DNA of 64,000 nt from Candidatus Iainarchaeum sp. (GCA_016939415.1 JAFGGZ010000032.1:1815-65814); one strand, 5' to 3'; shown: positions 14,230-62,542, counted from the first letter of the stretch. A program made the numbers and translations. Notes: generated from the letters alone by a model not told the origin.

Positions 14230-14351
14230 GAAAAACCCTCAGAACTAGGTTGGCTGCGATTATTCTGGAACAGTTCTTATTTAAAGCTATGCTCAAATAT
14301 TTAAATGCCCCCGCAGTAAAAAGCACTCGGGCTTGTTCTGCAGTGATTACT

Positions 14352-15548
14352 ATGGTCTCTAAGAATGGTCTTCTTGTCGTGTCGGCTATCCTGGTCGTGA
14401 GCCTTGCGGTCCCGCTTGCTTCCATGCTCACTGAGAGCGCTGCCCCCGAGGCTGAAGAGCCCGTCTCTTCTGACGCGCCGCCGGCCGTGCTGATCCAGAT
14501 AGAGGAATTCAGCGCAGTATCGTCCGGGACGGTCCTCAGCGTGCAACCAGTGCTTATAACGACAGCGACGTCTGATCTTGGCGCTCAGGCGCTGCGCGAA
14601 GCGATTGCGTCGCTACCGGGCGTGCAGAATGTTTCGTTGCAGCAGAGCGAGAATCCCGGTTCGGAAGGCTTGTACAAGTACGATGTCACTGTAACTACTG
14701 CCAGCCAGGCTGACAACGAGCGGGTGTCGTTCCTGCTCACGTCCTTGGTTTCCGGCGCAGATTTTCTGCCTCCCGCATCCCCCGCCGTCATAGGTCTTCC
14801 CAAGGTCTTGGAGGCGCGGAATGGTCGGGGGAGCACGGAGTTCATTGAGTTCGAGAACAATGTGACGACGGGTTACGTGTATGGTTTCACGCACGTCGGG
14901 GATGAGCAGTTGTTCAACTTGGAGATCCAGCGGTCCGGCGGGCGCATTGCTGTCATGGCTGTCGAGGCAGTGCGGCCGTACTCCCCGTCCGTGGAAGAGC
15001 ACGAGGCGGTGGTGGCTGCTCGGATTGTTGAAGTGACTGGCGAGGGCGTGGAGCGCCACCTGCCTTTCGGCGAGGGCGTTGACACGAAGGCGTTGTTCGA
15101 CCAGTACGGTGTGGGCGTCGCGTTCGACGAGGGGCTGCCGTTCTTCACAGTGTCTGCTGATGATGTTGGTTCTGTTCGGTCTGTTCTCGTGGAAAACAAT
15201 GTGTCTTTCTCCGAGTCCAGCGGTCTCTTGCTCGTGAGTTCAGGTGATTACTCAATTTCCTTTATCAAGTCATTGCTGCCGGAAGCGTCTGTTGAAGAAC
15301 CGCATGGCACGCTTTGGGTCGAGGGCAGTCCATTGCCTTCCGGCTTGCCCGGCGTTCTTGTTCGGGAGTACGACATGGCCACGATCACCTTGCCAGAAGT
15401 CGTGCTTGCGGACGGCATTGCCTTCAACTTGTCCGGTGGCAACATCCTCGCGCGCCAGCGCGTTCCTAAAGGTGCTGCAGGCGAGCTGAATGTGACTGCG
15501 GTGTTCAAGACTGCGTTCGGCGTGGTTGTCTCTATCGAGACGCGTTGA
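14352..15548 (+). CDS. hypothetical secreted or surface protein
   Basis: Start set at MVSKNGLLVVSAILVVSLAVPLASM, which reads as a signal peptide or TM segment. The protein is acidic and rich in Ser, Thr and Val, as expected for an extracellular protein. No family recognised. Confidence 0.45.
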   Translation: MVSKNGLLVVSAILVVSLAVPLASMLTESAAPEAEEPVSSDAPPAVLIQIEEFSAVSSGTVLSVQPVLITTATSDLGAQALREAIASLPGVQNVSLQQSENPGSEGLYKYDVTVTTASQADNERVSFLLTSLVSGADFLPPASPAVIGLPKVLEARNGRGSTEFIEFENNVTTGYVYGFTHVGDEQLFNLEIQRSGGRIAVMAVEAVRPYSPSVEEHEAVVAARIVEVTGEGVERHLPFGEGVDTKALFDQYGVGVAFDEGLPFFTVSADDVGSVRSVLVENNVSFSESSGLLLVSSGDYSISFIKSLLPEASVEEPHGTLWVEGSPLPSGLPGVLVREYDMATITLPEVVLADGIAFNLSGGNILARQRVPKGAAGELNVTAVFKTAFGVVVSIETR

Positions 15549-21074: not shown

Positions 21075-21132
21075 GCAGCGCTTTCTGCGGGCACTTGCTT
21101 AGTTTTAATAGCCCCGCCTCCATAATTTATGC

Positions 21133-24100
21133 GTGCCACCCAAGATCGTGATTGAAGCGGAGAGAGCGTATTCGAAGCTGCGCGGGAGAAAGACGTTCCC
21201 GGCGCTGCACGCAGCCATGGGTCTTGGGTCGAAGAAGGAGAAGGTGGCGCTTCTCTTAAGTATGCAGACCCACGCCCCTGACTTGTATGCGGCGGTGGGC
21301 GGGAAAACCCTTCGCTTCGGCTTGGAGCGCGGCATGTCTGTGGCCCGAATCGGGGAATTGTTCGGCTATCATGGATTGGCCGGGGCGAGTCTCAGGCACG
21401 TGCACATCATCGCCCAGAAGCGGATGGCGGGGATCGTGGCAGGAGACGCGGGGCTCATCAAGCTTGTGAGGGGCACTCAGGAGGGGCTCTTGAAGTATTC
21501 TCTTCTCCCGGAAGCCGAGTTCACGAAAGACGTCAACAGGGTTGTGTCGGACCAGCTCAAGGATCAGTCGCTTTCCTTGGCCAATGTCGCTGGGGCGCTT
21601 GGTTTTTCTCTCTCAATGCGGAAGGGCAGGCGCCCCAAGGTGCCGGCGAAAGCATCCGGGCGAATCCTGGGTGCTCTGTATCCCGCGGTTCGGCAGAGGG
21701 TTCACGATTCATTGTCGCGGGACGTGGTTGCGTATGCTTCTTTTTTCGGCAAGGAAGCCAAGAATCAGTTGGTGGTTTCTGTTGTCCGCAAGTTGCTTGA
21801 TGAGAACAGGCTGTCTTTGAGGAGCGTCGCTGCTGAGTTGGGTTATCGTTCTGGCGCGCGTGGCGGGCAGCAGATTGCTTCCACGCATGTGCGCGGCGTT
21901 GTCCTCCAGGCGCTCGGTGAAGAGGATCCCGGGTTTCTCGGCGAGATAAAGAAACAGAGGAACAGGAGTTACGATGATTTCCTGGAGTTTTTCGGGAGCG
22001 AGCCAGCCCAGGAACTGCTTGTGGGGTATGTCGTCGCTGGCTTGAAGCAAAGCAAGCGTTTTGATATAGACAGTGCTTTGCGTCGTTTTGGTGTGGGGGA
22101 GGTTTCTCGGGGGAGGATGCAGTCGATCAAGAGGTACGTGCGGAGGTTCGACAAGAAGTATGGTTCTGATGTGTTCGGCATGATGAAGCAGGCTGCCGAG
22201 AATTCGCATCGGTTCTATTCCAAGATGTACGGCAGCGATGCCTTGCGGAACGCTATCAAGGCTGATGTGTGGGGAGCTGTTCAAGGTCGTCGCGAATTCA
22301 GCATCAGAAAGATTGCCGATAAGTGGGGTTATGGCGGGAGTGTGTGCGCACGGTTTCTGCAGCCGCTCTTGGAACGGGATGCCGGTTTGAAGGGTGTGTA
22401 CGAGGGGCGGCTCAGGAAAGAGATAACCGCGCTCTTTGCGGGGGAGCGCAACCCGTCCATGCGCGAGGTTCTTGAAGCAGTCGGGTTGAATCCTGATGGC
22501 GGGGAGTACGTCCGTTCTGTTGTCAGCGGTGATGAGGCTTTATTGGCGAGGGTTGCCGGCAGGAAGCACGATCCAAAGTCGTACACGGATTTCTTCGGTG
22601 AGGGCAGGGTTCACGAATTCATCGCTGGCAGGCTACGTGCGTTAGTTGCTTCCGGCAGGGTGATCACTCCTACTGCTGTTGGTCGGGCTATCGGTCGGAG
22701 GGATCCGAGTTCTCCGCTGGTTTCCCAGCAGCTGCGCCGCGCGCTCGCTCACCAGCCGGATGTCGAGAGGATGTTCAGGGAGAGGCTCATGCAGCAGGGG
22801 GTCAGGGATTTCGCCAGGTTTTACGGCGATGCGGGTGTGGAGCAACTCATTGTAGCGCGGGCGGATGCTTTGAGCAAGGATTTGCGGTTGACTATGGAGG
22901 ATCTTGCTCATGATCTCGGTTACGCTCTTCACGGGGGGAGGTACGTCCCGAAGTCGATCCGCACCACGATACTCCGCGCGCTTGAGAAAGCGGGGAGGGA
23001 TGATTTGTTGCGTGGCGTTGCCGGAAGTGGGTTGGGTGCTGGGGAGCTGTTGGACAGGTACGTGAGCGACATTCAGAACACTGGCTGGGTCAGGCCGAAG
23101 ACAAAGGAGCAGATCGCCAGGAGCTATCCGGGAGGCTTCCCCGAATTCGTGGAGAAAGAGGTTTTCGAGCATGGCGAGCGGTTCCCTCCGCACACGATCC
23201 AGTGCATCCTGAGGGGTTTTTTCGCTGATCTCAAAAAGAATCCCGACCGCTATGCTGAGTACATCAAGAGGTTTTCTGGTGGGGAGGAGTCCCTCGCCCG
23301 CCTTCAGCACGCCTTCAGTGATTTCATTTGTTCGGGCGTGGCTTCGCACGAGGTCGTGAAGATACTGGGTGGGATGGTGAAGAACGGCGAGGTCGATGGT
23401 TACAGCGATGTTAAGCAGTTCAAGCGCGCGATCGATTTCTGCACTGGTCACAACATGTTCACGAAGGCGTTGCTTCACGAAACAGGGTATGTACCTAGGA
23501 CCCTGGCGTTGGATCATAATCCCCATATGCTTGAGAGGGGGATGAAGGACGAGCGGGTCGAGAACCGATTGGCTGATGTCGAGGAGTTGAGTGGTTTGAG
23601 TCCGGAGAATGACTTGGCGTCAATCGGCTTCGGGTTGGAGCACTTGGTTGACAGGAAGCGCCTGATGGAGAATGCCCATCGTTCTCTGAAGCGCGGCGGG
23701 GTGTTTGTTGCTTATGGTTCCGAGCCGTTTTCCGAGCAGTTTGTTGACGGTGCTCGTGAGATGGGTTTCAGGATTTTGAAGACGGGGATGATACGCACCC
23801 GTCTCAATTGGGAAAGCTCCCGCAACGTGAGCAGCGTTTTCGATCCTGACACCGCGAAACGCATAAAGCAGAGGTTTGTGAAGCGGGCGCATTTGCTGAT
23901 CCCCCAGAAGGTCACTGACGCGCCCAAGCCTTCTGGAGAGCGTTTCCTGCTTACTCATTACCCGCAGGAACCTGCTACAAGGCGTCCGCCGCCCTCGCCA
24001 GCCATGCAAATCCTGCCGGGTGATGTCCGCGACCTGGACATGAAAACGACGTCGGTACTTAAGGAAGTGTCTCCTGTTTCTCGTCGTGGGGATGTGGAGC

Positions 24101-24498
24101 ACGTGCGGGAGGTTCTCAGGATGGTGATACGGATGAGCGAGGCGGGCGTGTGGTACAAGGGCGAGCAGGTGAACGAGCTCATCTCGAGAATCCCCAGCGA
24201 CTGCGTGCATGAGTTCACCGGCCTTATCGGCAGGTGGAGGAGCGTGGAGGAGCGGCGCTACGGTGTGAGTCCTGCGCTGGTTGCGGCGCTCGCTGGCGTG
24301 GGGGTCGATCCGCATGTCTTCACCAGAGGGGTTAGGGAGGCGCTGAGGGAGAGCGAGACCATGACCGAGGACGGGTTCCTGGGTGCTGTTGCCGAGCGGA
24401 CGGGCGTGCGCGACAGGGATGTCTTGCTGAGGGCGTTAAGGGCCAGCGGCTACTCGCGCAGTTATTATGCCCGGGCGAAGCGGAAGTACGGGTTTTAG
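21133..24498 (+). CDS. large hypothetical protein (1121 aa) with ~7 sigma-region-4/HTH_10-like helix-turn-helix repeats and a degenerate SAM-methyltransferase-like core
   Basis: HTH-like units recur: MSVARIGELFGYHG, SLANVAGALGFS, SLRSVAAELGYRSG...VRGVV, SIRKIADKWGYGGS, SMREVLEAVGLNPDGG, TPTAVGRAIGRRDP and TMEDLAHDLGYALHGG...IRTTILRAL. Near aa 740–860, LALDHNPHMLERG...DLASIGFGLEHLVDRKRLMENAHRSLKRGGVFVAYG resembles class I methyltransferase motifs I through post-II (compare LKPGG), but no clean GxGxG is present. Confidence 0.5.
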   Translation: MPPKIVIEAERAYSKLRGRKTFPALHAAMGLGSKKEKVALLLSMQTHAPDLYAAVGGKTLRFGLERGMSVARIGELFGYHGLAGASLRHVHIIAQKRMAGIVAGDAGLIKLVRGTQEGLLKYSLLPEAEFTKDVNRVVSDQLKDQSLSLANVAGALGFSLSMRKGRRPKVPAKASGRILGALYPAVRQRVHDSLSRDVVAYASFFGKEAKNQLVVSVVRKLLDENRLSLRSVAAELGYRSGARGGQQIASTHVRGVVLQALGEEDPGFLGEIKKQRNRSYDDFLEFFGSEPAQELLVGYVVAGLKQSKRFDIDSALRRFGVGEVSRGRMQSIKRYVRRFDKKYGSDVFGMMKQAAENSHRFYSKMYGSDALRNAIKADVWGAVQGRREFSIRKIADKWGYGGSVCARFLQPLLERDAGLKGVYEGRLRKEITALFAGERNPSMREVLEAVGLNPDGGEYVRSVVSGDEALLARVAGRKHDPKSYTDFFGEGRVHEFIAGRLRALVASGRVITPTAVGRAIGRRDPSSPLVSQQLRRALAHQPDVERMFRERLMQQGVRDFARFYGDAGVEQLIVARADALSKDLRLTMEDLAHDLGYALHGGRYVPKSIRTTILRALEKAGRDDLLRGVAGSGLGAGELLDRYVSDIQNTGWVRPKTKEQIARSYPGGFPEFVEKEVFEHGERFPPHTIQCILRGFFADLKKNPDRYAEYIKRFSGGEESLARLQHAFSDFICSGVASHEVVKILGGMVKNGEVDGYSDVKQFKRAIDFCTGHNMFTKALLHETGYVPRTLALDHNPHMLERGMKDERVENRLADVEELSGLSPENDLASIGFGLEHLVDRKRLMENAHRSLKRGGVFVAYGSEPFSEQFVDGAREMGFRILKTGMIRTRLNWESSRNVSSVFDPDTAKRIKQRFVKRAHLLIPQKVTDAPKPSGERFLLTHYPQEPATRRPPPSPAMQILPGDVRDLDMKTTSVLKEVSPVSRRGDVEHVREVLRMVIRMSEAGVWYKGEQVNELISRIPSDCVHEFTGLIGRWRSVEERRYGVSPALVAALAGVGVDPHVFTRGVREALRESETMTEDGFLGAVAERTGVRDRDVLLRALRASGYSRSYYARAKRKYGF

Positions 24499-24501: not shown

Positions 24502-25701
24502 TCACTCAGCGAACCGCTTCTGGACTGCTGACAGGACTTTTTCCGCTGGGAACGATAGTCTGATCAGCCGAGTCTGCCCGCGGATGCCCTTGCCGGACAG
24601 TTCTGTTGTTATGAGTCCCAGCATCTCGAGTTCGTTCAGGTACTCCCTCACCCAGCGGGCGCTGCGCGCGTTCCTGTGCCATTGCTTGCAGACGGTCTGG
24701 TAGCGCTGGTACACTTCCCCGCTGAATAGTGCGGGGTCGTTGCCCCCTCCGCCGAGCCGCTGGTATTTGCCGCCTTCTTCTGTGAGCGTTGCGACCGAGA
24801 ACAGGACAATGCTCTGCTGGTCAGGGAGTGTTTGTATGAGTTCCAGCACGATGTCTTCTTCGACTGCGTTCCTTGCGTTCTTGACGTCCTCGTCCGTGAC
24901 TCTCTTGTTCTGTTCGTCGGCTATCTCTCCCGCTTTCAGCAATAGTTTCAGCGCGTACCTGGCGTCCCCGCTTTCCTGTGCTGCGTAGGCGCTGGCCAGC
25001 GCTATCGCGGAGTCTTCCACATACCCTTCCTTGAAGCCTTCGACTGTGCGCTCCTTGAGTATGGCTTGCAGTTGCTCTGCGTTGTAGGGTGCGAACACCA
25101 TTTCTTCCTGGCAGAGCGTGCTCTTGCTGCGCGGGTCGAGTTTTTCCTTGAAGTCAATCTTGTTGGATATTCCTATGAGCGCTATGTGTCCTTGCAGGAG
25201 GTCGTCGTTGCTGCGGGTGAGGGAGTACATCAGCTCGTCCAGGTCTTTTGTCTTGTCTATCTCGTCCAGGACGACTATGAATGTCACTGCCTTCTTCGCT
25301 ACTTCTTTCAGCAGTCTTTCGTAGAGGAATGTCGCGGGGTGGCCCATGAACGATTCTTCTGGGCAGAGGCGTTCCGCGCACTTGAGCAGGACTTGGTACT
25401 TCGTGTTGTGGATGCGGCAGTTGATGTACACCTGTTCCACCGGCGCTTCGTATTTTTGCGCTGCTTCCCCCAGCCTGGAGAGCACGTGTTTGGTGGATGA
25501 GGTCTTTCCCGTGCCAGTCTTTCCGTAGACGAATATGTTGTTAGGCCTTTTTTGCGAGAGGGATGGCGCTATCGCTTTCATTATCCGGGTTATCTCCCCG
25601 TCCCTGTACGGCAGGTGGTCGGGTATGTAGTGGGGGGATAGGACGTTCCTGTCCTTGAATATGGTCGGCCTGCTCATCTCTTGCTCGAAAATATCTTGCA
25701 T
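24502..25701 (-). CDS. cdc6: Orc1/Cdc6 replication initiator (AAA+ plus C-terminal winged helix)
   Basis: Start set at MQDIFEQEMSRPTIFKDRNVLSPHYIPDHLPYRDGE, a typical Cdc6 N-terminus. Walker A is VYGKTGTGKT. Walker B is VLDEIDK, with sensor motifs and a C-terminal wHTH. The ORF track extends the frame to 25887 with atypical N-terminal residues. Confidence 0.9.
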   Translation of the reverse strand: MQDIFEQEMSRPTIFKDRNVLSPHYIPDHLPYRDGEITRIMKAIAPSLSQKRPNNIFVYGKTGTGKTSSTKHVLSRLGEAAQKYEAPVEQVYINCRIHNTKYQVLLKCAERLCPEESFMGHPATFLYERLLKEVAKKAVTFIVVLDEIDKTKDLDELMYSLTRSNDDLLQGHIALIGISNKIDFKEKLDPRSKSTLCQEEMVFAPYNAEQLQAILKERTVEGFKEGYVEDSAIALASAYAAQESGDARYALKLLLKAGEIADEQNKRVTDEDVKNARNAVEEDIVLELIQTLPDQQSIVLFSVATLTEEGGKYQRLGGGGNDPALFSGEVYQRYQTVCKQWHRNARSARWVREYLNELEMLGLITTELSGKGIRGQTRLIRLSFPAEKVLSAVQKRFAE

Positions 25702-25807
25702 GAATCCACCGCAAGGGTTTAATAAAAGTACTCTCATAAGTATGGGTGCTGTTAGACTTCTACTATTGATGACAATGGTACTTAAAATATGTTGAGGAGG
25801 ACAAAGC

Positions 25808-26176
25808 ATGGTAGGGTTTTTGAAGAACATCTCTAAGCGCTTGGGAAGCACTTCAGAGGAAGCGGATGTCGATGAATACTTGGACACACTAGGGCTCGAG
25901 TCTGATTTCCTTCAGGAGGAAGCAGACGTTTGGGTGAAGCCTTACGTGCTGCAGGATGTCTCTGATGATTCAGCGATCATCGCCGACTTGCACGCTGGTA
26001 ACGTGGTGCTGATAAACATTGAGCCGCTGTACAAGCGGAACACCATCAAGCTGAAGCAAGTCATAAGCGAGCTCAAGAGCGCCGTGAAGAAGCTCGACGG
26101 CGACATGGTGCGCCTTACGGAGTACAAGATCCTTGTTACGCCGAAGGGCATGAAGGTCGCTAAGTCGAGAAAGTGA
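25808..26176 (+). CDS. sepF: archaeal SepF (FtsZ membrane anchor, DUF552)
   Basis: 122 aa. The N-terminal amphipathic helix is MVGFLKNISKRL. The DUF552 core is KPYVLQDVSDDSAIIADLHAGNVVLINIEPLYKRNTIKLKQVISELKSAVKKLDGDMVRLTEYKILVTPKGMKV. Confidence 0.7.
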   Translation: MVGFLKNISKRLGSTSEEADVDEYLDTLGLESDFLQEEADVWVKPYVLQDVSDDSAIIADLHAGNVVLINIEPLYKRNTIKLKQVISELKSAVKKLDGDMVRLTEYKILVTPKGMKVAKSRK

Positions 26177-26183: not shown

Positions 26184-26954
26184 ATGCTCTTGGACGCGCC
26201 CGCTTTGAGGCTGCAGGTCGATACGAACACTGCTCTCGGTATTCTCGAGGGCATCCTCAAGGAGCGGCACTGGAAGCAGTTCAATGTGTCCAGTGCCACC
26301 CTTGTATACACGCCTTTCTGGTTCTTCAACTTTGACGTGTACGAGGAGGCTGAGGGTCGCGCTCAGACATACTCCTCTCAGATGTGCATGAATGGTTTAA
26401 CTGGTGCGCTGGAGCCTGTCTTCATAGAGATTATGAAGGAGATACCGACTGTTGAAGAGAAGGAGATAACTCACAGCATCCAGAACGAGATCAAGCGGCT
26501 CGTTATCCAGAAGGATGAGGTGAAGTCCCTCGCTCAGATAAAGATCGCTGGCCAGATGGGCGTTCAGAAGGACATCATTACTGTGAGCGGCGTTCGCCTG
26601 GTTTACATGCCCCTCTGGGTTTTTTGGGTCGAGGTCGGCCGCAGGACGAAACGCATCGACATGGATGCGATCAGCGGGTCGCCGCTGAACATCCAGGATG
26701 TCCCCACGCGGGAACGCGGCACAATGGAAGTCACCATGGACATGCTCGAAGACTTGAAGCGGCCTGAGAACTGGGTTGACTATTCGAAGCGCGCTTTTGA
26801 CTGGAGCTTGGGTATCGCCGGGCTTGCCGGCCGCGCCGCAGGCTCTGGGGGCGGAGGCGTGATCAACTGGGTCATGACCACGACGATGGGTAAGTACGCA
26901 GCGCTCCTCGTCTTTGCTGCCATACTCGTGATTTACATCTTATCCTTCAAGTGA
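26184..26954 (+). CDS. hypothetical membrane-anchored protein with an internal duplication
   Basis: 256 aa. Two related segments are present: ATLVYTPFWFFNFDVYEEAEGR... and VRLVYMPLWVFWVEVGRRTKRIDMD.... A Gly-rich linker leads to a C-terminal TM helix, YAALLVFAAILVIYILSF. The gene lies 8 nt downstream of sepF. Confidence 0.4.
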   Translation: MLLDAPALRLQVDTNTALGILEGILKERHWKQFNVSSATLVYTPFWFFNFDVYEEAEGRAQTYSSQMCMNGLTGALEPVFIEIMKEIPTVEEKEITHSIQNEIKRLVIQKDEVKSLAQIKIAGQMGVQKDIITVSGVRLVYMPLWVFWVEVGRRTKRIDMDAISGSPLNIQDVPTRERGTMEVTMDMLEDLKRPENWVDYSKRAFDWSLGIAGLAGRAAGSGGGGVINWVMTTTMGKYAALLVFAAILVIYILSFK

Positions 26955-26990: not shown

Positions 26991-29900
26991 TCACATGAAC
27001 TCTGCCAGGCTGAACTGCTTGGCCTTGTCGTTGACGAACACTGAGTTTATGTCTCCCTCAACGATCTTGAGTCTTTGTTTCATGTAGTCGCTTAGTCCGT
27101 ACTCATCCGCGATGCGTTTCGAGACTTCCAGGTACTTGCGCACGCTGCCTTCAGCGATCGTGAGGATGATCTTGCCGCCGCACTTGTGGCATTTGCCTAT
27201 GAGCGGCACGCGCCTGTACTTCGCGTTGCAGTCAACGCATCTGAACTTCTGCTCGCCGAACGCCCTCAGGTTGCCGTATATGTCCCTCAGGAAGTGGCTG
27301 TTCAAAAGCCTTTCCGCCTCGTCTTTCTCGTCCACTGACCGGAGTTTCTTGCCGAGTTTCAGCTGAGCGTTGACCTTCTCCTCCATCTCGCCGAGCGTGG
27401 TATACGTTGACCTGGTCACGCCGTTGTCTATGGCGGTCGTGCCGTGCGTGAACCCGAACCCGTCGTATTGCCGGTCTGTGCCGAGCCTGCTTTCCACTGT
27501 TTCTATTTTGAAGTCCCGCGGGTTCAGGAGTTCGTGGCTTCTCCGGTAAAAATCAAGGGGGTACTCCCTGGTTGTTTCCAGTTTGTGCACCTGGTCGTCT
27601 ATTTGCATTGGGTCTATCGCAAGCGTGAGGACGAGGCAGGCATCCATCTTGCCACCGCGGGACGAGGGGAGGTACTTTTTAGAGAAGTTGAGCAGCGCAT
27701 CCAGCAGGAACATGCATCCGTTCTCGTCGCCGTCACAATCCCTCCTTGTGCTGGCGTGGAAGTACGGGTGGGCGTAGCACGCGCGGGCCTTGCTGAATCC
27801 GATTATGCGGCCAAGCACTCCGGCGCTGGTGTGCGGCGCCAGCCCTATGATGAGGTGGCCGACGAGGTCCTCTTTCGTCCGGGCGTTGTAGAACTGCTCG
27901 AGGCCGTACAGTTGCGTGAGCATCTCGTCCAGGGCCTTTGTCACGCGCACGAGGTAGTCGACGCCGGTTTCTGCGAGTATGACGTCCTGCGGGAGGAGCT
28001 CCACGATCTGGTTCTGACTCACCAGGTCCTTGCCTTCGTGGTCGTGAGCGTATCCCAGTTCCTTGAGTCTTTCCACGCTCGTGCCTATCTCCTTTGGTGT
28101 GAAATGCGTGGTGGGTAGGTTGGTGGAATCGAACCGGACCGTGCCGTCTTTGAATATGTACACGCCGTTCCTGGATCGGATTATGCCTTTCTCGAGCGGC
28201 TCGAACATCTTGCCCCCGCTCATCATTCCCTTGACTCCTTTTATCTTCGGGTCTGGCTTGCCGACGTTTTCCATGGCGTGATCCATCATGTCCTTGATGT
28301 TGACCACGCTCTTGTCGTATGCTGTGGGCCTGACGCCGCAGATCGGACACTCGTCTTCTGTCTCCCTGCCGCATTTTGGGCACACGAGCAGCGGCTTTGT
28401 GCGTTCGCCGCAGTCCATGCACTTGTAGGAGAACATGACCTTGCCGCATTTCGGGCACTTCATTCTCGCGATTTCCACGCTGATGGTTTTCCTGTCGTAT
28501 GCTTTCATGATTGAGCGCGTGTTCCCACCGTAGTTCCCCACAGGGAACAGTATGTTCGGCGCAGGCTTCATGAGTCTCTCCTTTGCTTTTTCGGGCCTGC
28601 CCATCCTCGTGCCCAGGTATACGGGCGCCTTCACTTTTATCACATACGGACTGAGCTCGTTCACGAGCGTCATCGGGTCGCCGGCGTCTATCTGTTCCAC
28701 TGCTTTCGCTGAGTCAGGAACTGCCAACGTCTTTTTGAGCGCTTCCCAATCATCCCCTTCTATCACTATTGTGTCTTCCCTCACTGTGTGTGGCACGAGC
28801 AGCTTTTCGAGCGCGCGCTTCTGCGGCCCGGTCTTCATGTCCGTGGCGAGCCATTGCACGAGTTCCCTCAGTTCTGTCACTGTCACGTCGCTGTAATTGT
28901 AGACGTACCTGGGGTGGAGGGGCACTCCGTACTTCTCTGAGTACTTGACTGCTTCTTCGAAGGATACGCGGTATGGGTCTTCGCACAGGCCGCCCGCGTC
29001 CTTGACTTCCAGCGCCCACCACTCCTCGCACCATGCTGACGGAACGATGGGGTGATTTGTTTGCAGGAAGTCGTTGAATGATACGAGTATGTCGCCGTTG
29101 AAGAGCACTTCTTCTGTCGCGGGCCTGAGCTGGTTGGCTTGTTCCTCGCTCTCCACTCGCACGACGCTGCCGTCCCTCAGCCTGATGACCGGCCCTTCGA
29201 TGGTGTCTACTGGGACTACTGTCATGCCCTTGCCGGGTCTTTCTACTTTGAGTTGCGTGCCGATGGCGGGGAACCCGTCGAGTGCCGCCATGGCGGCCGG
29301 GTGCATGCCTTTGGCCATGAGGCCATTGTTTCGGCTGCGGCCGTATCTCAGCCTGAACCCTCCTGGCCTGGAGGGGTAGGAGAAGATGGGGCGGCCCGCA
29401 ACGATGTCGCGGAGGAACTTGTCCAGCGGCTCTATTTTTCTCGCGCCTTCCTCTTCCTTTCCGACTTTTATGAACGACTGGAGCCACCCCCACTTCAATT
29501 TCATCTCGTTCGAGATGCGCAGGATCTTCTGGGCCTTTTGTGCGATGCCTTCTGCCACGACCAGGCACGCGCCGCCGCGCACTCGATTGGTTGGCACGCG
29601 CGGTATGTCTTTGTGGACGTCCACTTCCTGTTCGAGTGTTGGGTCTCCGTTGATGCAGACCGGGCAGTTGCGGATGACTGTCCTGACTTCGTCGTCGCTG
29701 GGCTTGTACTGCAGGTGTTCCACGTTGTGGTATATGTTTATCTCTTCCACGTAGCGCTCGACTTCCGTTTCTGTCGGCCTGTATTCGCTGAGGCCAATCT
29801 TTTGTCTGGCGTAGTCACCGATGAGGCAGGTTATTGCTTGGCCTGTGCCTCCAGCGCTCCGTATGGGTCCTGAGAAGTATATGCTTAGGTACTCGCTTCC

Positions 29901-30293
29901 GTCTGGGTTCTTCTCTATCTTCACGTCTGCGACGCCCTCGATCGGCGCTGCTACGACCGCTTCAGTGTATAGCGCCAGACCTGTTCGGACGCATTGTTCT
30001 GCCTGGCTTGCCTTGTCGTGCTGTCCGTACTTGCCTTCGCAGATTTTGTCGCATATCGCGAGGAGGGTTTGGTCGCGGCTCATCGTCTTGAGGCATTCAC
30101 GTATGTCCTTGGCCACTCCCTTTGGGCCGATGAGTCCCTCGACACGCGCGCTGAGGTCTTCTGCGAGAGGTATTTCGACTTCTGTTTCCGGGTCGATGCC
30201 TATTGCGCGCGCCTTGCCGGCGATTTCGTAGACTGCGTTGGCTTTGGCTTCGAGGTTTTTGTAGTAGTCGAGCACGCGCGCTGATGCTTTCAT
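26991..30293 (-). CDS. polC: DNA polymerase II (PolD) large catalytic subunit DP2
   Basis: About 1100 aa. The sequence matches DP2, including the conserved Zn-binding modules CPKCGKVMFSYKCMDCGERTKPLLVCPKCGRETEDECPICG and RCVDCNAKY...KCHKCGG. Start set at MKASARVLDYY at 30293, which forms an ATGA overlap with the DP1 stop. The ATG-defined ORF extends to 30419. Confidence 0.95.
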   Translation of the reverse strand: MKASARVLDYYKNLEAKANAVYEIAGKARAIGIDPETEVEIPLAEDLSARVEGLIGPKGVAKDIRECLKTMSRDQTLLAICDKICEGKYGQHDKASQAEQCVRTGLALYTEAVVAAPIEGVADVKIEKNPDGSEYLSIYFSGPIRSAGGTGQAITCLIGDYARQKIGLSEYRPTETEVERYVEEINIYHNVEHLQYKPSDDEVRTVIRNCPVCINGDPTLEQEVDVHKDIPRVPTNRVRGGACLVVAEGIAQKAQKILRISNEMKLKWGWLQSFIKVGKEEEGARKIEPLDKFLRDIVAGRPIFSYPSRPGGFRLRYGRSRNNGLMAKGMHPAAMAALDGFPAIGTQLKVERPGKGMTVVPVDTIEGPVIRLRDGSVVRVESEEQANQLRPATEEVLFNGDILVSFNDFLQTNHPIVPSAWCEEWWALEVKDAGGLCEDPYRVSFEEAVKYSEKYGVPLHPRYVYNYSDVTVTELRELVQWLATDMKTGPQKRALEKLLVPHTVREDTIVIEGDDWEALKKTLAVPDSAKAVEQIDAGDPMTLVNELSPYVIKVKAPVYLGTRMGRPEKAKERLMKPAPNILFPVGNYGGNTRSIMKAYDRKTISVEIARMKCPKCGKVMFSYKCMDCGERTKPLLVCPKCGRETEDECPICGVRPTAYDKSVVNIKDMMDHAMENVGKPDPKIKGVKGMMSGGKMFEPLEKGIIRSRNGVYIFKDGTVRFDSTNLPTTHFTPKEIGTSVERLKELGYAHDHEGKDLVSQNQIVELLPQDVILAETGVDYLVRVTKALDEMLTQLYGLEQFYNARTKEDLVGHLIIGLAPHTSAGVLGRIIGFSKARACYAHPYFHASTRRDCDGDENGCMFLLDALLNFSKKYLPSSRGGKMDACLVLTLAIDPMQIDDQVHKLETTREYPLDFYRRSHELLNPRDFKIETVESRLGTDRQYDGFGFTHGTTAIDNGVTRSTYTTLGEMEEKVNAQLKLGKKLRSVDEKDEAERLLNSHFLRDIYGNLRAFGEQKFRCVDCNAKYRRVPLIGKCHKCGGKIILTIAEGSVRKYLEVSKRIADEYGLSDYMKQRLKIVEGDINSVFVNDKAKQFSLAEFM

Positions 30294-31771
30294 GCACCCA
30301 CCTCTTTGTCGAAGTGCACGATGCTCAGCTTTGTGGCGTGCAGGTCCAGTATGGGGAGTATGCATGGCGTCGGGTGGTGGCCTTTCTGCAGTTGGTACGG
30401 CGTCTGTTTCTGCCAGCATCCCGCGTTCACGCCGATGACTCCTTTGTACGTGATGTAGCCGTTCCTGTGCACGTCAGCGACTTGCATGACGTCCGGGACG
30501 CGTTCTATGACCATATAATCCTTTTTTTCCGGGGTGATCGGCGGGCGTTCGCCGTAGACTGGGTGGAGGTGCCTCCTCTGCAGGTACTCCACGCACACCT
30601 TTTCCGGGTGGACGTAGTCCGTTGTCTTTACGTGCGGCACGATGCTGTGGATGCTTGCGCCGTGGTACAGCAGGAACTCAACGCCGTGGAGCGAGCAGTA
30701 GCCGGGTGATGACATGAGGTTCACGTTGTCGAGTGAGGTTATGTTGTTAGTGACTTCATTACTCATTGCGGGCTGCGGGTCGGCGGTGCGCACTGCGTCG
30801 TGGTTTCCGGGGGTGAGCACCACTTCCACGTAGTCAGGGAGCTGTTCGAGGTATTGCTTGAATTGCCTGTATTGCTCGAATATGTCTGTGGTTTCGAGCT
30901 CGTATTCCTGGTTGGGGTATATGCCCACGCCGTCAACCAGGTCTCCTGCGATCGTGATGTACTTTATCCTGCCTGCGAGCTCTCTCTGTTTTGCGTTGCC
31001 GTGCCTGCCGTGCATCCAGTCAATGAATTTCTCGAAGTTCTGTCGCATGAACAGCAGTGAGCCTATGTGCGTGTCGCTCATCATTCCGACGCACAGGCTT
31101 TCTTCTGTTCTTCTCGGCTGGTGGAGGGGTATGTCCGGCTTTATGATTGCGTTGGCGATGAATAGTTCCCTGCTCATTTTTCCGTCGATGGCTATGACTT
31201 CGTCGTTGATGACGTTGTGGGATTCTTCGATGAGTTGTCTGTCGCTTTGCGGGACGAGGACGTTGATGGTGTCGGTCTCGTCTTCCAAGGATATCAGTCT
31301 GTGGCCGTTCTTGGTGGTTTTGATTTCGCTGACCATGCCTATGATGCGTACTTTCTCGCCCATCCCCCGCCTCTTGACGTGCTCGATGTCTCTTGCCGGG
31401 CCGCGTTCCTTGATTATGCCGGACAGCCTGCGGAAGCGGTCCCTGAAGTGTTCCACGAAGTCGTCGACCTTGCCTTCGCACATTGACTTGCCTGTGACGT
31501 TGAAGTCTTCGAATTCCTTGAATTCTGCGTCGTGTTCTTTGGCGAGGGGCTTGAAGTCCGTGTGCTCCACGACGATTTTCTGTTCCGGCAAGAACTTGGG
31601 TTCCGCATCTATGAGTTCTTGTTTCGTGACGACGGGTCCGCGGATCTTCGGGAGTATTTCTTCGCAGTACTTGAGGGGGGTGGGCTTGAGGATTACATGG
31701 CCGAGGCCATCAGAAGACAGCAGCATCCCCCGTTCTCTGAATAAGGCTAGTATTTCTTCTCTCATTGCCAC
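30290..31771 (-). CDS. polB: DNA polymerase II (PolD) small subunit DP1 (calcineurin-like 3'-5' exonuclease)
   Basis: 493 aa. It has an N-terminal OB-fold region. The metallophosphatase motifs are MSDTHIG, GDLVD, GNHD and GH. The gene is co-linear with DP2. Confidence 0.92.
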   Translation of the reverse strand: MAMREEILALFRERGMLLSSDGLGHVILKPTPLKYCEEILPKIRGPVVTKQELIDAEPKFLPEQKIVVEHTDFKPLAKEHDAEFKEFEDFNVTGKSMCEGKVDDFVEHFRDRFRRLSGIIKERGPARDIEHVKRRGMGEKVRIIGMVSEIKTTKNGHRLISLEDETDTINVLVPQSDRQLIEESHNVINDEVIAIDGKMSRELFIANAIIKPDIPLHQPRRTEESLCVGMMSDTHIGSLLFMRQNFEKFIDWMHGRHGNAKQRELAGRIKYITIAGDLVDGVGIYPNQEYELETTDIFEQYRQFKQYLEQLPDYVEVVLTPGNHDAVRTADPQPAMSNEVTNNITSLDNVNLMSSPGYCSLHGVEFLLYHGASIHSIVPHVKTTDYVHPEKVCVEYLQRRHLHPVYGERPPITPEKKDYMVIERVPDVMQVADVHRNGYITYKGVIGVNAGCWQKQTPYQLQKGHHPTPCILPILDLHATKLSIVHFDKEVGA

Positions 31772-47107: not shown

Positions 47108-47608
47108 ATGATCGTAATCTCCGGCACGCCAGGCACGGGAAAGACGCAGGTAGCCCGCCTGGTGGCAAAATCGTTGGGCTTGCCGCTCCTTGATGTGACA
47201 AGGCTCGTGCGCGAGGAACGCTTATTCACTTCCAGAGAGAATGGAGTGCTCGTCGTTGACATGCCTGCGCTGGGGAAGCGCCTGCGCGGCTTTTCCGGCC
47301 TCGCTGAAGGGCACGTGCTCTGCGAGCTGAAGCTGCCAGCCCGCTGTGTTGTACTCCGCACTGATCCGCGCGTGCTGGAGGCTCGATTGAAACGCAGGAA
47401 GTACAGGAAGCAGAAGATACTCGACAATGTCGAGTCCGAGGCCTTGGACTACTGTCTCATCTATGCGAGGGAGAATTACCGCGACGTCTTGCAGGTGGAT
47501 ACCACACGCCGTACTGCAGAACAGACTGCTAGGCGCGTGCTTCGCGTGCTGGATGGGAAGGCCGTCAGCGACAAAGTGGATTGGACCGATTGGATCCTCA
47601 ATCACTGA
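47108..47608 (+). CDS. Fap7/AK6-like P-loop NTPase (putative archaeal adenylate kinase isoenzyme 6 homologue)
   Basis: The P-loop is MIVISGTPGTGKTQVARLV. The ~165-aa size and overall pattern match archaeal Fap7-type kinases. Confidence 0.65.
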   Translation: MIVISGTPGTGKTQVARLVAKSLGLPLLDVTRLVREERLFTSRENGVLVVDMPALGKRLRGFSGLAEGHVLCELKLPARCVVLRTDPRVLEARLKRRKYRKQKILDNVESEALDYCLIYARENYRDVLQVDTTRRTAEQTARRVLRVLDGKAVSDKVDWTDWILNH

Positions 47609-50600
47609 TTTGCCTGCTTATCACGCGCTTCAGCGGCTTGTCCTCTTTTTTTCGCATGCGCCACGCCACGAGCGCTGCAGCCATGGGCAGCAGAACCAGC
47701 GGCGTCCACTCCAGCGAGACCATCCCCGTCGCCGCGCTCTTCCTGAGGGCGGTGCGGGAGTGCGCGTATTTCGCGTAGATGAATGCCTTGTTGTACTCTT
47801 CTGCGTTGTACGACTCTGATGCCTTGCTTAGGATGTCTGCCATTGAGTAATCTTCTGTCTCGTCCATGATTGTTTTCGCTGCGTCGTACTCTTCCCAGGC
47901 TTTCTCAGCCAGTGATGATATCGTGGAGTCTATCCTTTGCTTGGCGTTTTCCACGCGCCTCTCCAAATCCTCTATCTCCTGCACTGTTTCTGCCTTGAGT
48001 TCCTGCGACAACAGTCTCTCGCAATCCCTCTCGCTCATGCTTACGGGAATGATGACGTCCAGCTCGGTGTCTGTGGAGCAGGCTTTCAGCAGTCTCTCCT
48101 CATCTGCATCCAGGGATATTGATGATAATCGCTGCGCCACATCCTCGCGCTCGGATTGCATCAGGCCCCTGATCTCTTTCGCGAGCTGCTCTGTTTCCTC
48201 GGCGTTCTCCAAAAAGCAGGCGTAATCCTCTTTCCTGAAGCATGATTCAGCCAGCTCGTATGCCGAGAGCATTGCTGTTGCGTCCGCTCGCATGCTCTTG
48301 GCTTCTTTCGCAATGGCATCCACTTCCTTGCTCAGCGTTGCTTTCCTGTCCTTCAGAGCCCGCTCGACTCCGGCGGACTTTACGCTGCTGGCGGCTTCTG
48401 AGAAAAGTGTTGTGGCTGCGCTGAACTCCCCCGCGTTCTTGAGCGCGCTGGCTTCGGCAGCAAGCGCTTCAGCTCTGGAAACATCTTTCCCTAGGATGCC
48501 GGCTGCTTCCATAAAGCGCGATGCCTGCAGGTACTCTTCTTCTCTGGCTGATGCCTTGGTCATTTCCAGGAGTGTCTTGGCAAGCTCTGTTCGCAGGCGC
48601 TTCGCTTCCTCCATCAGCGTCGGGGCTTCCAGCAGGATCGTGCCCGCGTCCTTCGATCGCAATGCCCCGGCCTTCCTGCGCAGGGCTTCGGCGTCCTCTC
48701 CTGCCAGCGGCATCAGCAGCCTGTCGAGTTCTTCCAGCGCCTCGGCTGAGTCCTCTTCATCGCTTCCTGCAGTGAACTCCATGCCGAACCCGGTGCACGC
48801 CACGCCTTTCACGAGCACTGTTTTTTCCGACAGGCGTTCCACGCGCCCGGAACTCGTTTTTACCTGGCCTTTTGGCGTGAAGGGGAGGTCTATTATCACA
48901 GAAACGTTGTCCCATCCGCAGTTCATGCGGACGGGCACCCAGCAGTCGTAGCCACTCCGCAGGACGGGCGCGTCCACTGCTACAGGGATCGTGAACACTG
49001 CTTCAACCAGGTTATCTCCTTTCTCGAGCTGCTTCCTGACCTCACCGGTCGAGAACGCTATCATGCCTTCTGTGTCTGCCAGTGAGCTGACGGTCCGACG
49101 GCTTTTCACAGTCGCGACACTGTCTCGTATCCATACGCTGCGTTCTTCTGGCCCGCATTCCAGTGCCACGACCATCAGCTCTTCTTCCCATTCCATTGTC
49201 GAGAATGGCTCGACAGCAGAACCGTACGCTGCCACCGGCAGGGGTGTTGGGTTGAACACTGCATGCCATTCAACGCAGCCCACTTCTTTCCCGCATTCCG
49301 GCGCTTCCGTGAATGAGTATGTTGTGCGTTCCTCGAGCCTGGATCCTGCGTCGAATGCGTCAATGATCTTTGCGTAATGCGCTTTCATGATCTTTAGTTG
49401 TCCGATGGCAGCTTCGTAGTCCAAGCCGTTTTCGAACACTCCACCGAACTCTGCGTCATATCCCGTGATTGCGAGTGCCTGCTCCCTCAGCAGGGGTATG
49501 CTGGCGTACTCTCTCCTGGCCCGCTCCACCAGCCGCTCCCTCAACTGTCCTGCCTCTTCTGCTGCGAGAGCGATTTCTGCGGGCATTTCCGATGCCAGTC
49601 TCTGGTCAAGGAATGCCAGTTCCTCTTTTTCCTGCCGCGTGTCCATGTCTTTGCCTGCCCTGTCTAGGAGCGCTCTTGTCTTTGCCAGTTCTTTTTCAGC
49701 GTCTTTCCCGAGGAAGGCATCGGCTTCCATATCGATTAGGCGCTTGGCTTCTGCGTAATTTTTTATGCTACTCCCCGCGTTCCCTGTCGGTGCGCACAGC
49801 CGTTTCACGCGTCCCGCGATTAGCGCTGTTGCGGACGCATCGTGGTTTTCGCACCATGCTGCTCCCAGCGATTCCAGCTCGAGAAGCTCTTGCCTAGCCC
49901 TCTTCGCCTCTTCCCTCAGGTGCGTTGCCTGCGATGAAATTGATTCAAGGAGCAGCGTTGACTCGACGACGTAATCATTGCCCTTCGTTTCCATAATCCA
50001 CTCCGCCTTCTTTGTCAGGCCGCTCAGTCTGTTCACCTCATCCTCCATGAATTCTTTTGTTTCTCGCGGCGTCTTCCTCGCTGCAGTGAAGTGCTTGTCT
50101 TCGAGCGACGCGATGTCCCGCTCAGTGACAAGTTCAACTCCCATGCCCGCAAGTTCGTCTGCCTCCTGTTTGGTAATGGATAGCGCGTTATCCGCTGTTT
50201 CCACGGCTTCTGCTTGGCTGGCTTTCATCTGCTCCTTGGCGCGCATGAGTCTCTGCTTCATGCCCGCGATTTTCTGGAGTGCGGTGCCGTCCCTGTTTGC
50301 GTGCAGCAAGGCGTTGTAGTGCGTTGAGTAATCATTCGGTGCCTGCAGGATCTTCACGTAGTCGTGGTTGAGTACATAGCTTATGATGGATGCATCGACA
50401 GGCATGTCAGATATGTCCATCCTCACCGACCCTTCCACATACACGTGCCCGTATTTCTGCATCGCTGACAAGAATGGCTGCAGTCCGCTGGTTGTCGGTT
50501 CCTCTAATTCCCGCGCCGTGCCAGCGAACGCGTCATGCGACTCGCTCACGCACTCGGTGCGGTCCGCGCCCATGCGGTCGAGTTCTTCCAAGTCGTTTTT

Positions 50601-51056: not shown

Positions 51057-51091
51057 GGAATCTCCCCCGCATGCTTTTTGTGTGCTGCCTG

Positions 51092-51961
51092 TTAAATGCT
51101 TTTCGCTGCGTTCTTGATTTCTTCTATACTGCGTGCCGCGCTTATCCTCCCCCGCAGCACAGGGCTTCCTGGGAATCCCTTTGCGAGGAAGAGGGCATGG
51201 CACTTCAAGTCGTTGAGAGAAATCTCGCCAGTGCGCTCCGAGGTGGCTGCATACTCCTCGATGAGTCTGATCTTATCCTCCTTCGCTGTGCTTTCCATGC
51301 CGCTGAATACGCGCGGGTCCTCCAGCGCTGCGCGGCCGATCATTACGTGGTCGCACCCCGTCTCCCCGATCATGCGCTCCGCGTCATCCGAGGAGTGCAC
51401 GTCTCCGTTCCCTATGACCGGCACGCCCACTGAGTCCGCCACGCGCTTTATGACCTGCCAGTCCGCTTTCCCGGAGTATCCGTGCGTGGCGAGGCGTCCG
51501 TGCACCGCGATCATGCTGGCGCCCGCGCGCTCGCAGGCCTCGGCTGTCTCCACCGCGTTTTCCCTGTCCCAGCCGGCGCGTATCTTCACTGTGACAGGTA
51601 CTGTCGCGGCGTCTGTCATGGCCTCGACAATGCGCGCCAGTAGCGTGGGGTCCTTCATCAGGTCAGCGCCCATACCATTGCCTGCGACTTTCGGCACTGG
51701 GCATCCTGCGTTCAGGTCTATGAGCACTGGGTTGTATTGCTCTGCCCATCGCACTGCCTCAACGAGCCGTTCAGGCAGGTTGCCGAACAATTGGATGGAG
51801 AGCGGGCCCTCTTCTTCGCTTGTGAGTATGTCGCGCTGCTGGCCGAAGTGCACTGCGTTCGCACTCATCATCTCGGTGCTCACGACATCGGCCCCGTGCT
51901 TCCTGCACATGATCCTGAACGCGAGCGAGTTATACCCGGCCATGGGCGCAAGGAAAAGCAT
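51092..51961 (-). CDS. dus: tRNA-dihydrouridine synthase (Dus family)
   Basis: LAPMAGY plus a TIM-barrel FMN-binding pattern (IDLNAGCP, the catalytic Cys, and KIR). 289 aa. Confidence 0.85.
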   Translation of the reverse strand: MLFLAPMAGYNSLAFRIMCRKHGADVVSTEMMSANAVHFGQQRDILTSEEEGPLSIQLFGNLPERLVEAVRWAEQYNPVLIDLNAGCPVPKVAGNGMGADLMKDPTLLARIVEAMTDAATVPVTVKIRAGWDRENAVETAEACERAGASMIAVHGRLATHGYSGKADWQVIKRVADSVGVPVIGNGDVHSSDDAERMIGETGCDHVMIGRAALEDPRVFSGMESTAKEDKIRLIEEYAATSERTGEISLNDLKCHALFLAKGFPGSPVLRGRISAARSIEEIKNAAKSI

Positions 51962-62257: not shown

Positions 62258-62279
62258 GAGCCCCTCATTATTTTTTTAA
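62258..62279 (+). terminator. oligo-T terminator-like tract
   Basis: gagcccctcattaTTTTTTTaag lies directly after the stop codon. Confidence 0.35.
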
Positions 62280-62293
62280 GCAGAGCTGCGGCT

Positions 62294-62425: not shown

Positions 62426-62542
62426 TCTCACACCTCGCAAAAATAAAACACCCTTTGCCCCAGGGGGCCCTAATCGTTACGATGCCGTTCTATAAAAGGA
62501 TTTCGTCAATTTTACGTAAGCTGACGAATGCTTTTTGCACTC

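Follow-up and report, generated by a model that had tools for sequence, protein, structure and literature searches.

A methyltransferase-domain protein with eight tandem repeats of about 80 residues in a DPANN archaeon

The stretch of DNA analysed here (the window, 64,000 nucleotides) is derived from a tiny symbiotic-type (DPANN) archaeon, and the feature examined is, on the + strand, a single open reading frame (ORF) of 1121 amino acids plus stop (21133-24498; TAG stop at 24496-24498), which was borne out as the sequence-only reading had placed it and opens with a GTG start. Two candidate starts can be recognized, the GTG at 21133 and the first in-frame ATG at 21217, and the true start is uncertain; direct reading of the sequence places a TATA-like TTTTAATA at 21114-21121, upstream of the ORF. 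The translated sequence is that of NCBI entry MBN3037345.1, a 'methyltransferase domain-containing protein' of a Candidatus Diapherotrites archaeon MAG. The ORF is a genuine gene with native codon usage, having a GC3 of 0.69 and a codon-usage distance of 0.13 from the window's core genes, which is within the core-gene range. An artefact could be suspected, either a long ORF that is spurious or a gene that MAG assembly made chimeric or fused through a frameshift, since the protein is a singleton found on one MAG contig, begins with GTG and has an uncertain 5′ end. This is hardly credible: the gene matches core genes in GC3 and codon usage, its Pfam domain is in frame, the repeats are periodic over 600 amino acids in one frame, and in the relatives, too, one polypeptide combines an N-extension, a linker and a methyltransferase.

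The convergent neighbour, which serves as context only, is Orc1/Cdc6 (24502-25701, - strand; likely start ATG at 25701), recognized by its Cdc6_C (9e-21) and Cdc6_lid (3e-19) domains. The two stop codons were confirmed to be 3 nt apart on opposite strands (TAG at 24496-24498 for the repeat ORF, TCA at 24502-24504 for orc1/cdc6). The repeat ORF lies within a group of replication genes, namely Hel308, Orc1 and PolD DP2/DP1.

All features of the protein are given below with their coordinates on the + strand. After a basic N-terminal stretch of 40 residues that lies outside the repeats (21133-21252, upstream of 21253), the protein carries eight tandem units of about 80 amino acids (aa 41-640), seven full and one partial. 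These are U1 (aa 41-120; 21253-21492), which is marginal and has an 8-aa insertion in helix 1; U2 (aa 121-199; 21493-21729); U3 (aa 200-281; 21730-21975; leave-one-out z 12.1), the most typical unit; U4 (aa 282-361; 21976-22215); U5 (aa 362-435; 22216-22437), which has the shortest, canonical-length turn (WGYGGSV); U6 (aa 436-482; 22438-22578), a half unit that lacks the first two helices; U7 (aa 483-558; 22579-22806), which is Arg-rich (13 R, 0 K); and U8 (aa 559-640; 22807-23052; leave-one-out z 7.5). Statistical support is strong for five units and marginal for three. In leave-one-out HMM comparisons U2, U3, U5 and U8 outscored all 300 shuffles (0/300 for each) and the score of U4 was reached by 1/300, the corresponding counts for the marginal units being 3/300 (U6), 4/300 (U7) and 11/300 (U1). 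Pairwise Smith-Waterman z values against shuffles reached 9.1 (U3/U8), 7.2 (U3/U4) and 6.4 (U3/U5). Identity between units is 14-26%, and the repeats are ancient duplicates, with no recent expansion.

The sequence-only reading had described a recurring unit of about 25 amino acids along the N-terminal 700 residues, with Gly-rich loops between the units. Tandem repetition was confirmed, but the 25-aa motif is the conserved core of the 80-aa unit, the array ends at about aa 640, and the Gly-rich loops sit inside the units, where they separate the second core helix from the third. The recurring core itself, S-[LM]-x-x-[VI]-A-x-x-LG[YF], stood up to scrutiny: the strict form of the earlier pattern has two matches in the protein, and a slightly looser form has five (aa 69, 148, 228, 390 and 587; spacings of 79, 80, 162 and 197 aa), where 20,000 shuffles give an expectation of 0.004. 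The array carries a net charge of +30 (pI 10.1), with positive charge in nearly all units. An AF2 model of U3, for which the eight units served as the alignment (pLDDT 76.6, pTM 0.63), has five helices, with the Gly-rich loop at unit aa 38-51 between core helices 2 and 3. An AF2 model of the whole protein, made with no alignment, was too poor to use (pLDDT 43 overall and about 30 over the methyltransferase region).

That the repeats are HTH units is weakly supported. The signals point towards AraC-type domains and all lie below threshold: the whole protein scored 21.9 bits against HTH_AraC (cut-off 26.6), with no single stretch passing, and 16.7 bits against HTH_18 (cut-off 33.6), U3 being the sole unit that matched HTH_18 (E=0.19). 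Neither a single unit nor the unit consensus reached the threshold of any Pfam HTH model. The repeat profile found an AraC regulator (E=0.011) and Ner (E=0.77) in the PDB, and Foldseek searches of the unit model against the PDB and BFVD returned nothing significant (E of 1.5 or higher). The likeness to sigma-70 region 4 or HTH_10 that had been proposed was not borne out: neither was matched by the whole protein (E<=0.1) or by single units and the unit consensus (E<=10). Single units, linker, C-terminal tail and unit consensus gave no usable match to Pfam or the PDB. In the unit model helices 2 and 3 are joined by a long loop of low confidence. Among the units, the Gly/Arg-rich loop that separates the putative HTH helices ranges from about 2 to 14 residues, a variability not typical of HTHs that read DNA.

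The array is followed by a helical linker (aa 641-755; 23053-23397), which from aa 688 on is conserved with the relatives P0002 and P0005/P0010, and by a class I SAM-methyltransferase core (aa 756-900; 23398-23832). Next are a post-methyltransferase segment (aa 901-966; 23833-24030) that is conserved in the small family, with R..LL..QK and a basic Pro-rich end, and a C-terminal helical tail (aa 967-1121; 24031-24495) that is unique to MBN3037345.1. The tail has two A..(G)VG HTH-like stretches with no significant relation to the repeats, and it matched neither the repeat profile nor the tail of P0010.

A methyltransferase-like segment had been proposed from the sequence and was confirmed at aa ~760-860, where the protein passes the gathering cut-offs of Methyltransf_11 (PF08241; 29.9 bits against 21.2; aa 769-859, profile positions 3-94/95) and Ubie_methyltran (27.1 bits against 20.1). 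With the equivalog and subfamily models for UbiE/MenG (NCBIfam TIGR01934 and NF001244) the score was about 30 bits, far short of their cut-offs of 158-420, which rules out a quinone methyltransferase orthologue.

Motif I reads A-I-D-F-C-T-G-H-N-M-F (aa 766-776; 23428-23460), so that the canonical (E/D)xGxGxG loop is indeed absent: D768-F-C-T-G772-H-N774 has Cys at the position of the first Gly and Asn at that of the third. In the relatives the motif is D-Y-A-A-G-P-N, D-L-G-A-G-P-S or D-C-G-S-G-P-S; the third Gly is replaced across the whole family, the first only in MBN3037345.1 and P0002. The other core motifs are post-I (D794, in the context LALD), motif II (D815, in LADVEEL), LKRGG (852-856) and a family-specific EPFSEQF...MGFRIL (864-882). 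D768, G772, D794, D815, K853 and G856 are invariant across the four family members, which share 24-29% identity, and D768, G772, D794 and D815 are the residues expected to contact SAM. The suggestion of a catalytically dead fold is unsupported, since the presumed SAM-contacting Asp and Gly are invariant in three distant relatives and Pfam gathering thresholds are passed; the core is probably active.

The methyltransferase family is very rare, having been seen only in a few archaeal metagenome contigs and in one CPR-bacterial clade (P0003/P0007, Candidatus Shapirobacteria). An exhaustive phmmer search of 1.84 billion representative proteins yielded four matches, all to the methyltransferase core; true homology over aa 688-966 was found for P0002, P0003 and P0005 alone, with E-values of 1.5e-18 to 1.4e-4. 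Among 5.8 billion word-indexed proteins the whole protein found itself alone, and neither the family core profile nor the repeat profile found a match; no relative of the protein was found in genome and metagenome contigs. Matches of a two-sequence core alignment in the contig scan were all generic bacterial methyltransferases. Deep searches with the repeat region likewise returned only the protein itself, which bears out the earlier remark that no described family is known to join so many repeats to a methyltransferase fold. A literature search found no report of tandem-HTH methyltransferases in archaea. P0005 and P0010 have N-terminal repeats of about 85 amino acids with a similar 'helix - ITxxDIxxKLxYG - basic Gly loop' pattern, but these show no significant relation to those of MBN3037345.1 (hhalign, P0010 repeats, P=0.055). 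None of the relatives' neighbour genes was found to be a split-off repeat domain.

The N- and C-terminal extensions differ in every family member (P0002 has no extension at all), and the number of repeats is polymorphic, two or three, within the single 90% cluster of P0005/P0010. Together with the restriction of the family to a handful of archaeal contigs and Shapirobacteria, this would suit an interaction or accessory protein that evolves fast and is specific to lineages of episymbiotic DPANN and CPR organisms, with a target in the host or in a mobile element and with repeats that diversify quickly in number and sequence. We give this reading only a slim chance. The repeats of MBN3037345.1 are old rather than recently expanded, neither a signal peptide nor a transmembrane segment is evident in the protein sequence, and the gene has native codon usage and lies among core genes. 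Phage and defence families, too, were matched no better than by generic methyltransferase similarity: PHROGs gave weak methyltransferase similarity at most, and PADLOC gave no significant match, its mad2 model scoring 14 bits (E=0.004) over the methyltransferase core.

The sequence-only reading had further proposed a multivalent DNA-binding HTH scaffold with a dead methyltransferase fold, which would work with the adjacent Orc1/Cdc6 to control replication or organise the chromosome. Such a scaffold is very unlikely, even though the repeat array is basic, HTH signals are present in weak form, the glycine loop is non-canonical and the gene sits among replication genes. Apart from the invariant SAM-site residues and the Pfam scores, the genomic setting speaks against it: the P0010 locus is flanked by Alba, AspRS, Sec61-beta and others and the P0002 loci by HTH_10, a methyltransferase and enolase, all without orc1, one clade of the family is bacterial, and synteny is not conserved. 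The two genes are convergent and hence are not co-transcribed. The periodic DNA motifs for which a check had been suggested were not found nearby, there being no DNA-level repeats around the repeat gene or in the orc1 intergenic region. The 3-nt junction with orc1/cdc6 reflects the compactness of the genome and no functional coupling, and the repeat protein offers no handle on archaeal replication control.

We favour, at a little under an even chance, a lineage-restricted multidomain enzyme in which the repeat array binds nucleic acid and tethers a probably active methyltransferase. Here, eight all-helical modules of about 80 amino acids, each with a three-helix core that resembles an HTH but has its turn enlarged to a basic Gly-rich loop, would bind a long nucleic-acid substrate multivalently, and the array and helical linker would hold the class I SAM methyltransferase on that substrate. 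The enzyme would probably modify RNA rather than DNA. Its core is similar to UbiE/Methyltransf_11 and Rrp8-type enzymes and lacks the (D/N/S)PP(Y/F/W) motif by which DNA amino-methyltransferases (N6-adenine/N4-cytosine) are known: [DNS]PP[YFWH] occurs nowhere in the 1121-aa protein, and the whole protein does not match N6_N4_Mtase or MethyltransfD12 in Pfam. The four-member family profile has human RRP8 ('cerebral protein 1', 2zfu) as its best PDB match (E=4e-6), generic methyltransferases following from 1.8e-5; the alignment with 2zfu includes the family-specific PFS..F...G(F/Y).I segment and excludes motif I. The relative P0003 just passes Methyltransf_8 (PF05148; 27.9 against a threshold of 27). 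The pointer to Rrp8 and RNA comes from this four-sequence family profile, the query alone giving no match to Methyltransf_8 at E<=0.1. The similar repeat pattern in P0005/P0010 speaks for the favoured reading; against it stand the sub-threshold HTH scores, the non-significant Foldseek results, the variable loop, the non-canonical glycine loop, the poor whole-protein model and the protein's being a singleton from one MAG.

The same array could instead be a protein-protein interaction solenoid (ARM/TPR-like), with an enzyme that methylates a protein or a small molecule, an unlikely alternative. The variable length of the 'turn' would fit it, as would the nearest single-sequence methyltransferase matches, which are small-molecule enzymes (Coq5/UbiE, with Coq5 the best match of the query alone) and a protein lysine methyltransferase at E=0.27. 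Very high positive charge across nearly all units is harder to reconcile with a solenoid; the unit's only sequence-level matches are DNA-binding HTHs, and 80-aa, five-helix units are longer than those of ARM, HEAT or TPR repeats. A more specific form of the nucleic-acid-binding reading, which we regard as quite unlikely, holds that the 80-aa unit is an HTH-derived nucleic-acid-binding repeat, not described before, whose turn became a basic Gly/Arg loop, that eight such units position a rare, Rrp8-like methyltransferase on long RNA or DNA in DPANN archaea, and that P0005/P0010 represent a second independent expansion.

If the 80-aa unit is correctly read in this way, the repeat-guided methyltransferases of ultra-small symbionts would be a class of their own, and a new one. 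A basic array acting as a modular nucleic-acid reader would add a new repeat type to the few tandem-module binders, namely zinc fingers, TALE, PUF, PPR and Myb, and would show how genome-reduced DPANN and CPR organisms target an RNA- or DNA-modifying enzyme. For now this is a single orphan protein from one MAG, its methyltransferase core is ordinary and it lacks a conserved genomic partner; its practical value is limited to that of a candidate for structural or biochemical characterisation.

Among known systems, the Methyltransf_11 and UbiE-COQ5 families (PF08241, PF01209) are both matched above gathering scores by aa ~758-860, where motif I is followed as usual by post-I, II and III and the conserved Asp residues are present. 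MBN3037345.1 differs from them in its glycine loop, C-T-G-H-N rather than G-x-G-x-G, and in its extensions of 750 amino acids at the N-terminus and 220 at the C-terminus. Rrp8/nucleomethylin (Methyltransf_8; 2zfu), which has a non-catalytic N-terminal extension, provides the best solved structure for the family profile, and the aligned part spans the segment after the LK.GG strand (..F....F...v..lG(F/Y).i); unlike the protein described here, it is eukaryotic and lacks tandem helical repeats. Rrp8 is the 25S rRNA m1A645 methyltransferase (PMC6085284). With AraC/XylS-type HTH proteins the unit shares its 'helix - lSl..vA..lGy - helix' core, which aligns with the second HTH of the AraC regulator 5chh; in contrast to these and other tri-helical or winged HTHs, the turn is a Gly/Arg-rich loop of 2-14 residues and the unit has two extra helices. 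Several tri-helical or winged HTH domains are also strung in one chain in TFIIIC tau138, but none of the AraC/XylS, other HTH or winged-helix arrays carries a methyltransferase, and all scores are sub-threshold. A further comparison is with P0002, P0003-P0007 and P0005-P0010, all unnamed 'methyltransferase domain-containing proteins' of which none is characterised; their extensions have no detectable relation to those of MBN3037345.1, whereas the linker, the PFS.SF motif, the LL..QK tail and the motif I variant D-x-[GAC]-x-G-[PH]-[NS]-[TM] are shared.

The best-supported explanation of the 1121-amino acid (aa) protein encoded at 21133-24498 (+) is that it is probably a SAM methyltransferase tethered to nucleic acid by a repeat array. 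The gene is a single open reading frame (ORF) with a GTG start, and its product is identical to NCBI MBN3037345.1 ('MAG: methyltransferase domain-containing protein [Candidatus Diapherotrites archaeon]'), which comes from a 66.6-kb contig and forms a one-member cluster. The gene has a GC3 of 0.69 and lies at a codon-usage distance of 0.13 from the window's core genes, where correctly framed core genes (Orc1 left out) range from 0.08 to 0.20; because both values match those of the core genes, this is a native coding gene and not a chance ORF. The 5′-end is uncertain, which leaves the repeats unaffected. TATA-like TTTTAATA (21114-21121) and ATAATTTA (21123-21130) lie just before the GTG at 21133, too close to that codon, so that transcription may begin downstream of it; the earliest in-frame ATG is codon 29 (21217).

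The N-terminal part of the protein had been described as at least seven recurrences of a unit of about 25 aa. This motif is real, but it forms only the conserved core of a longer, roughly 80-aa unit, and the number and boundaries of the units also required correction. In loosened form the motif occurs five times at spacings of 79, 80, 162 and 197 aa, against 0.004 occurrences expected from shuffles. The N-terminal 640 aa were divided into eight consecutive units (U1 to U8, aa 41-640), and pairwise Smith-Waterman comparison against 200 shuffles gave z-scores of 9.1 (U3/U8), 7.2 (U3/U4), 6.4 (U3/U5), 4.4 (U2/U3), 4.2 (U1/U5) and 3.5 (U3/U7); beyond aa 41-640 the comparison yielded no more than a lone weak match (U6/aa 641-720, z 3.8). 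In a leave-one-out HMM test U3, U8, U5 and U2 scored above 300/300 shuffles and U4 above all except one of 300; U6, which is a half unit, U7 and U1 were marginal, their scores being matched by 3, 4 and 11 of 300 shuffles. Identity between units is 14-26% and no DNA-level repeat underlies them around the gene, and the duplications are therefore old. The unit consensus is (D/S)Y..FFG....eqlv..v...l...r.S(l/i)r.vA..lGy-[Gly/Arg-rich loop of 2-14 residues]-v...vR..l...d.gl...v, which places within each unit the Gly-rich loops that had been assigned to the spaces between repeats. The array carries a strong positive charge (net +30, pI 10.1, 65 Arg in 600 aa); in the linker (aa 641-755) and methyltransferase core the charge is close to neutral. 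No relative of the repeat module was detectable in any library searched.

The evidence leans toward the proposed helix-turn-helix (HTH) nature of the repeats, yet it stays below every formal threshold. An hmmscan of the whole protein listed HTH_18, HTH_38 and HTH_AraC, the last at 21.9 bits (cut-off 26.6) with no individual stretch passing, and neither single units nor the HMM consensus gave a useful match in Pfam or the PDB. When compared with all PDB sequences, the eight-unit profile matched the AraC-family regulator 5chh (E=0.011) and phage Mu Ner (E=0.77), and in each case the alignment falls on 'helix + first HTH helix + Gly'. The AlphaFold2 model of U3, for which the eight units served as each other's alignment, contains five helices (pLDDT 76.6, pTM 0.63) with a poorly defined loop joining the second and third core helices, and a Foldseek search of the unit model against PDB and BFVD returned nothing significant. 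The length of the 'turn' varies among units, which is unusual for a canonical DNA-reading HTH. We read the units as HTH-derived three-helix cores set in a five-helix unit, and their charge points to a putative role in nucleic-acid binding.

The stretch at residues ~758-860 scores above the gathering thresholds of both Methyltransf_11 (29.9 bits; threshold 21.2) and Ubie_methyltran (27.1 bits; threshold 20.1), but far under the cut-offs of the NCBIfam UbiE/MenG equivalogs. When 1.84 billion representatives were scanned exhaustively with HMMER (E<=0.001), only four other proteins were recovered, with every match within aa 688-966 of the query: P0002 (326 aa, E 1.5e-18), P0003 (649 aa, in a cluster that contains Candidatus Shapirobacteria proteins), P0005 (666 aa, with the 751-aa cluster-mate P0010), all unnamed 'methyltransferase domain-containing proteins', and P0004, a generic UbiE-like protein. 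The canonical GxGxG is indeed absent from the query, as had been noted, motif I being D768-F-C-T-G772-H-N774; in the relatives motif I reads D-x-[GA]-x-G-P-[NS]-T, so loss of the third Gly is a family trait. Across the query and its three true relatives (P0002, P0003 and P0005; 24-29% identity), D768, G772, D794 (post-I), D815 (motif II), D827 and K853/G856 (LK.GG) are invariant, as is a family-specific segment, PFS.SF...G(F/Y).I. Purifying selection thus acts on the acidic residues that contact SAM, which argues against the catalytically dead fold suggested earlier; the enzyme is probably active.

The best solved relative of the family profile is human RRP8 (2zfu, 'cerebral protein 1', E=4e-6), in a match that takes in the segment past the LK.GG strand, and P0003 narrowly passes Methyltransf_8. 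Rrp8 is the 25S rRNA m1A645 methyltransferase (PMC6085284). Since the query by itself matches Coq5 most closely and does not match Methyltransf_8 in the Pfam search, the Rrp8 relation is a lead and not a family membership. The 1121-aa protein lacks a (D/N/S)PP(Y/F/W) motif and matches no DNA-methylase family in Pfam, and RNA is predicted to be a more likely substrate than DNA.

Tandem helical modules precede the catalytic domain in two of the four members of this rare methyltransferase family. An N-terminal unit of ~85 aa lies upstream of the core in three copies in P0010 (L001:377-2632) and in two in P0005, with 75-86% mutual identity. Their pattern, 'YINQLIAYLEKATGKQRESITYEDIEDKLTYG-KMNKAGERG-LYQAF', resembles 'helix - S-I/L-x-x-x-(A/I)-x-x-L-x-Y-G - basic Gly loop - helix'; profile-profile comparison with the query units was not significant (P=0.055), and a common origin is at most plausible. 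P0005 and P0010 share a 90%-identity cluster, and the repeat copy number has changed recently between them; it can change quickly.

The gene lies among archaeal housekeeping and replication genes, including Lhr, FttA, a Na+/H+ exchanger and a Hel308-type helicase. Immediately upstream, in the same orientation, are DJ-1/PfpI and DUF498; Orc1/Cdc6 is downstream and convergent, and beyond it follow SepF, a 256-aa ORF (26184-26954, +) without Pfam, NCBIfam or PADLOC matches, and PolD DP2 and DP1. Genes for DNA replication, DNA repair and RNA processing cluster at positions 7568-31771 (Lhr-type helicase, FttA/aCPSF1, Hel308-type helicase, Orc1/Cdc6, and both PolD subunits, large DP2 and small DP1). 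Within this cluster the mechanical DP1 ORF (30290-31771) runs ~130 nt into the 5′-end of DP2 (26991-30419), presumably through its own over-extension.

The stop codons of the 1121-aa gene and orc1/cdc6 are 3 nt apart, as the sequence-only reading stated. The association is not kept among homologues: neither P0010, P0002 nor the Shapirobacteria members, which are bacterial, are near orc1/cdc6. The P0010 locus, on an archaeal contig, has an unknown gene on one side and a bPH_2 protein, adenosine-specific kinase, AspRS, Alba, DUF460 and others on the opposite side; P0002 is flanked by small unknown ORFs, with an HTH_10 regulator, another methyltransferase and enolase nearby. Genes around the homologues are unrelated to the query's repeats or tail. 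Between 20.6 and 26.3 kb the DNA shows neither periodic nor repeated motifs, and just three tandem repeats, all trivial, are present across the whole window. For the suggested defence role, comparison with PADLOC and PHROGs returned only weak methyltransferase similarity. Most simply, the convergent junction is an outcome of tight gene packing, with no detectable functional tie to Orc1/Cdc6. The mechanical Orc1/Cdc6 ORF (24502-25887, -, 461 aa, GTG at 25887) overlaps the divergent SepF gene (25808-26176, +; PF04472, E 1e-11), and the true start is probably the ATG at 25701 (MQDIFEQEMS..., 399 aa). This start leaves an AT-rich intergenic region of ~105 bp (25702-25807) without ORB-like repeats, and hence no obvious origin beside orc1.

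Elsewhere in the window, a second large orphan ORF (47598-51203, -, 1201 aa) has native codon usage and no Pfam or PADLOC match. Its N-terminus carries a hydrophobic segment, long helical stretches are rich in Glu/Ala/Lys, and a hydrophobic anchor at the C-terminus precedes RKKEDK; the product could be a surface or envelope protein. A 432-aa ORF (14250-15548, +) has no Pfam match. No tRNA genes, and no Rfam families at gathering threshold, were found within the 64-kb window, and GC is 0.47-0.50 at both window ends (1-2000 and 62001-64000) versus ~0.56 elsewhere.

Overall, the sequence-only reading was largely right in observation, save for unit length, number and boundaries, and partly right in interpretation. 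The protein would be a lineage-restricted SAM methyltransferase in which eight HTH-like helical modules form a basic array that keeps the enzyme on a nucleic-acid substrate. Judged from this single MAG protein, what is new is the domain architecture, in which a repeat module without detectable relatives is joined to an enzyme of a known kind.
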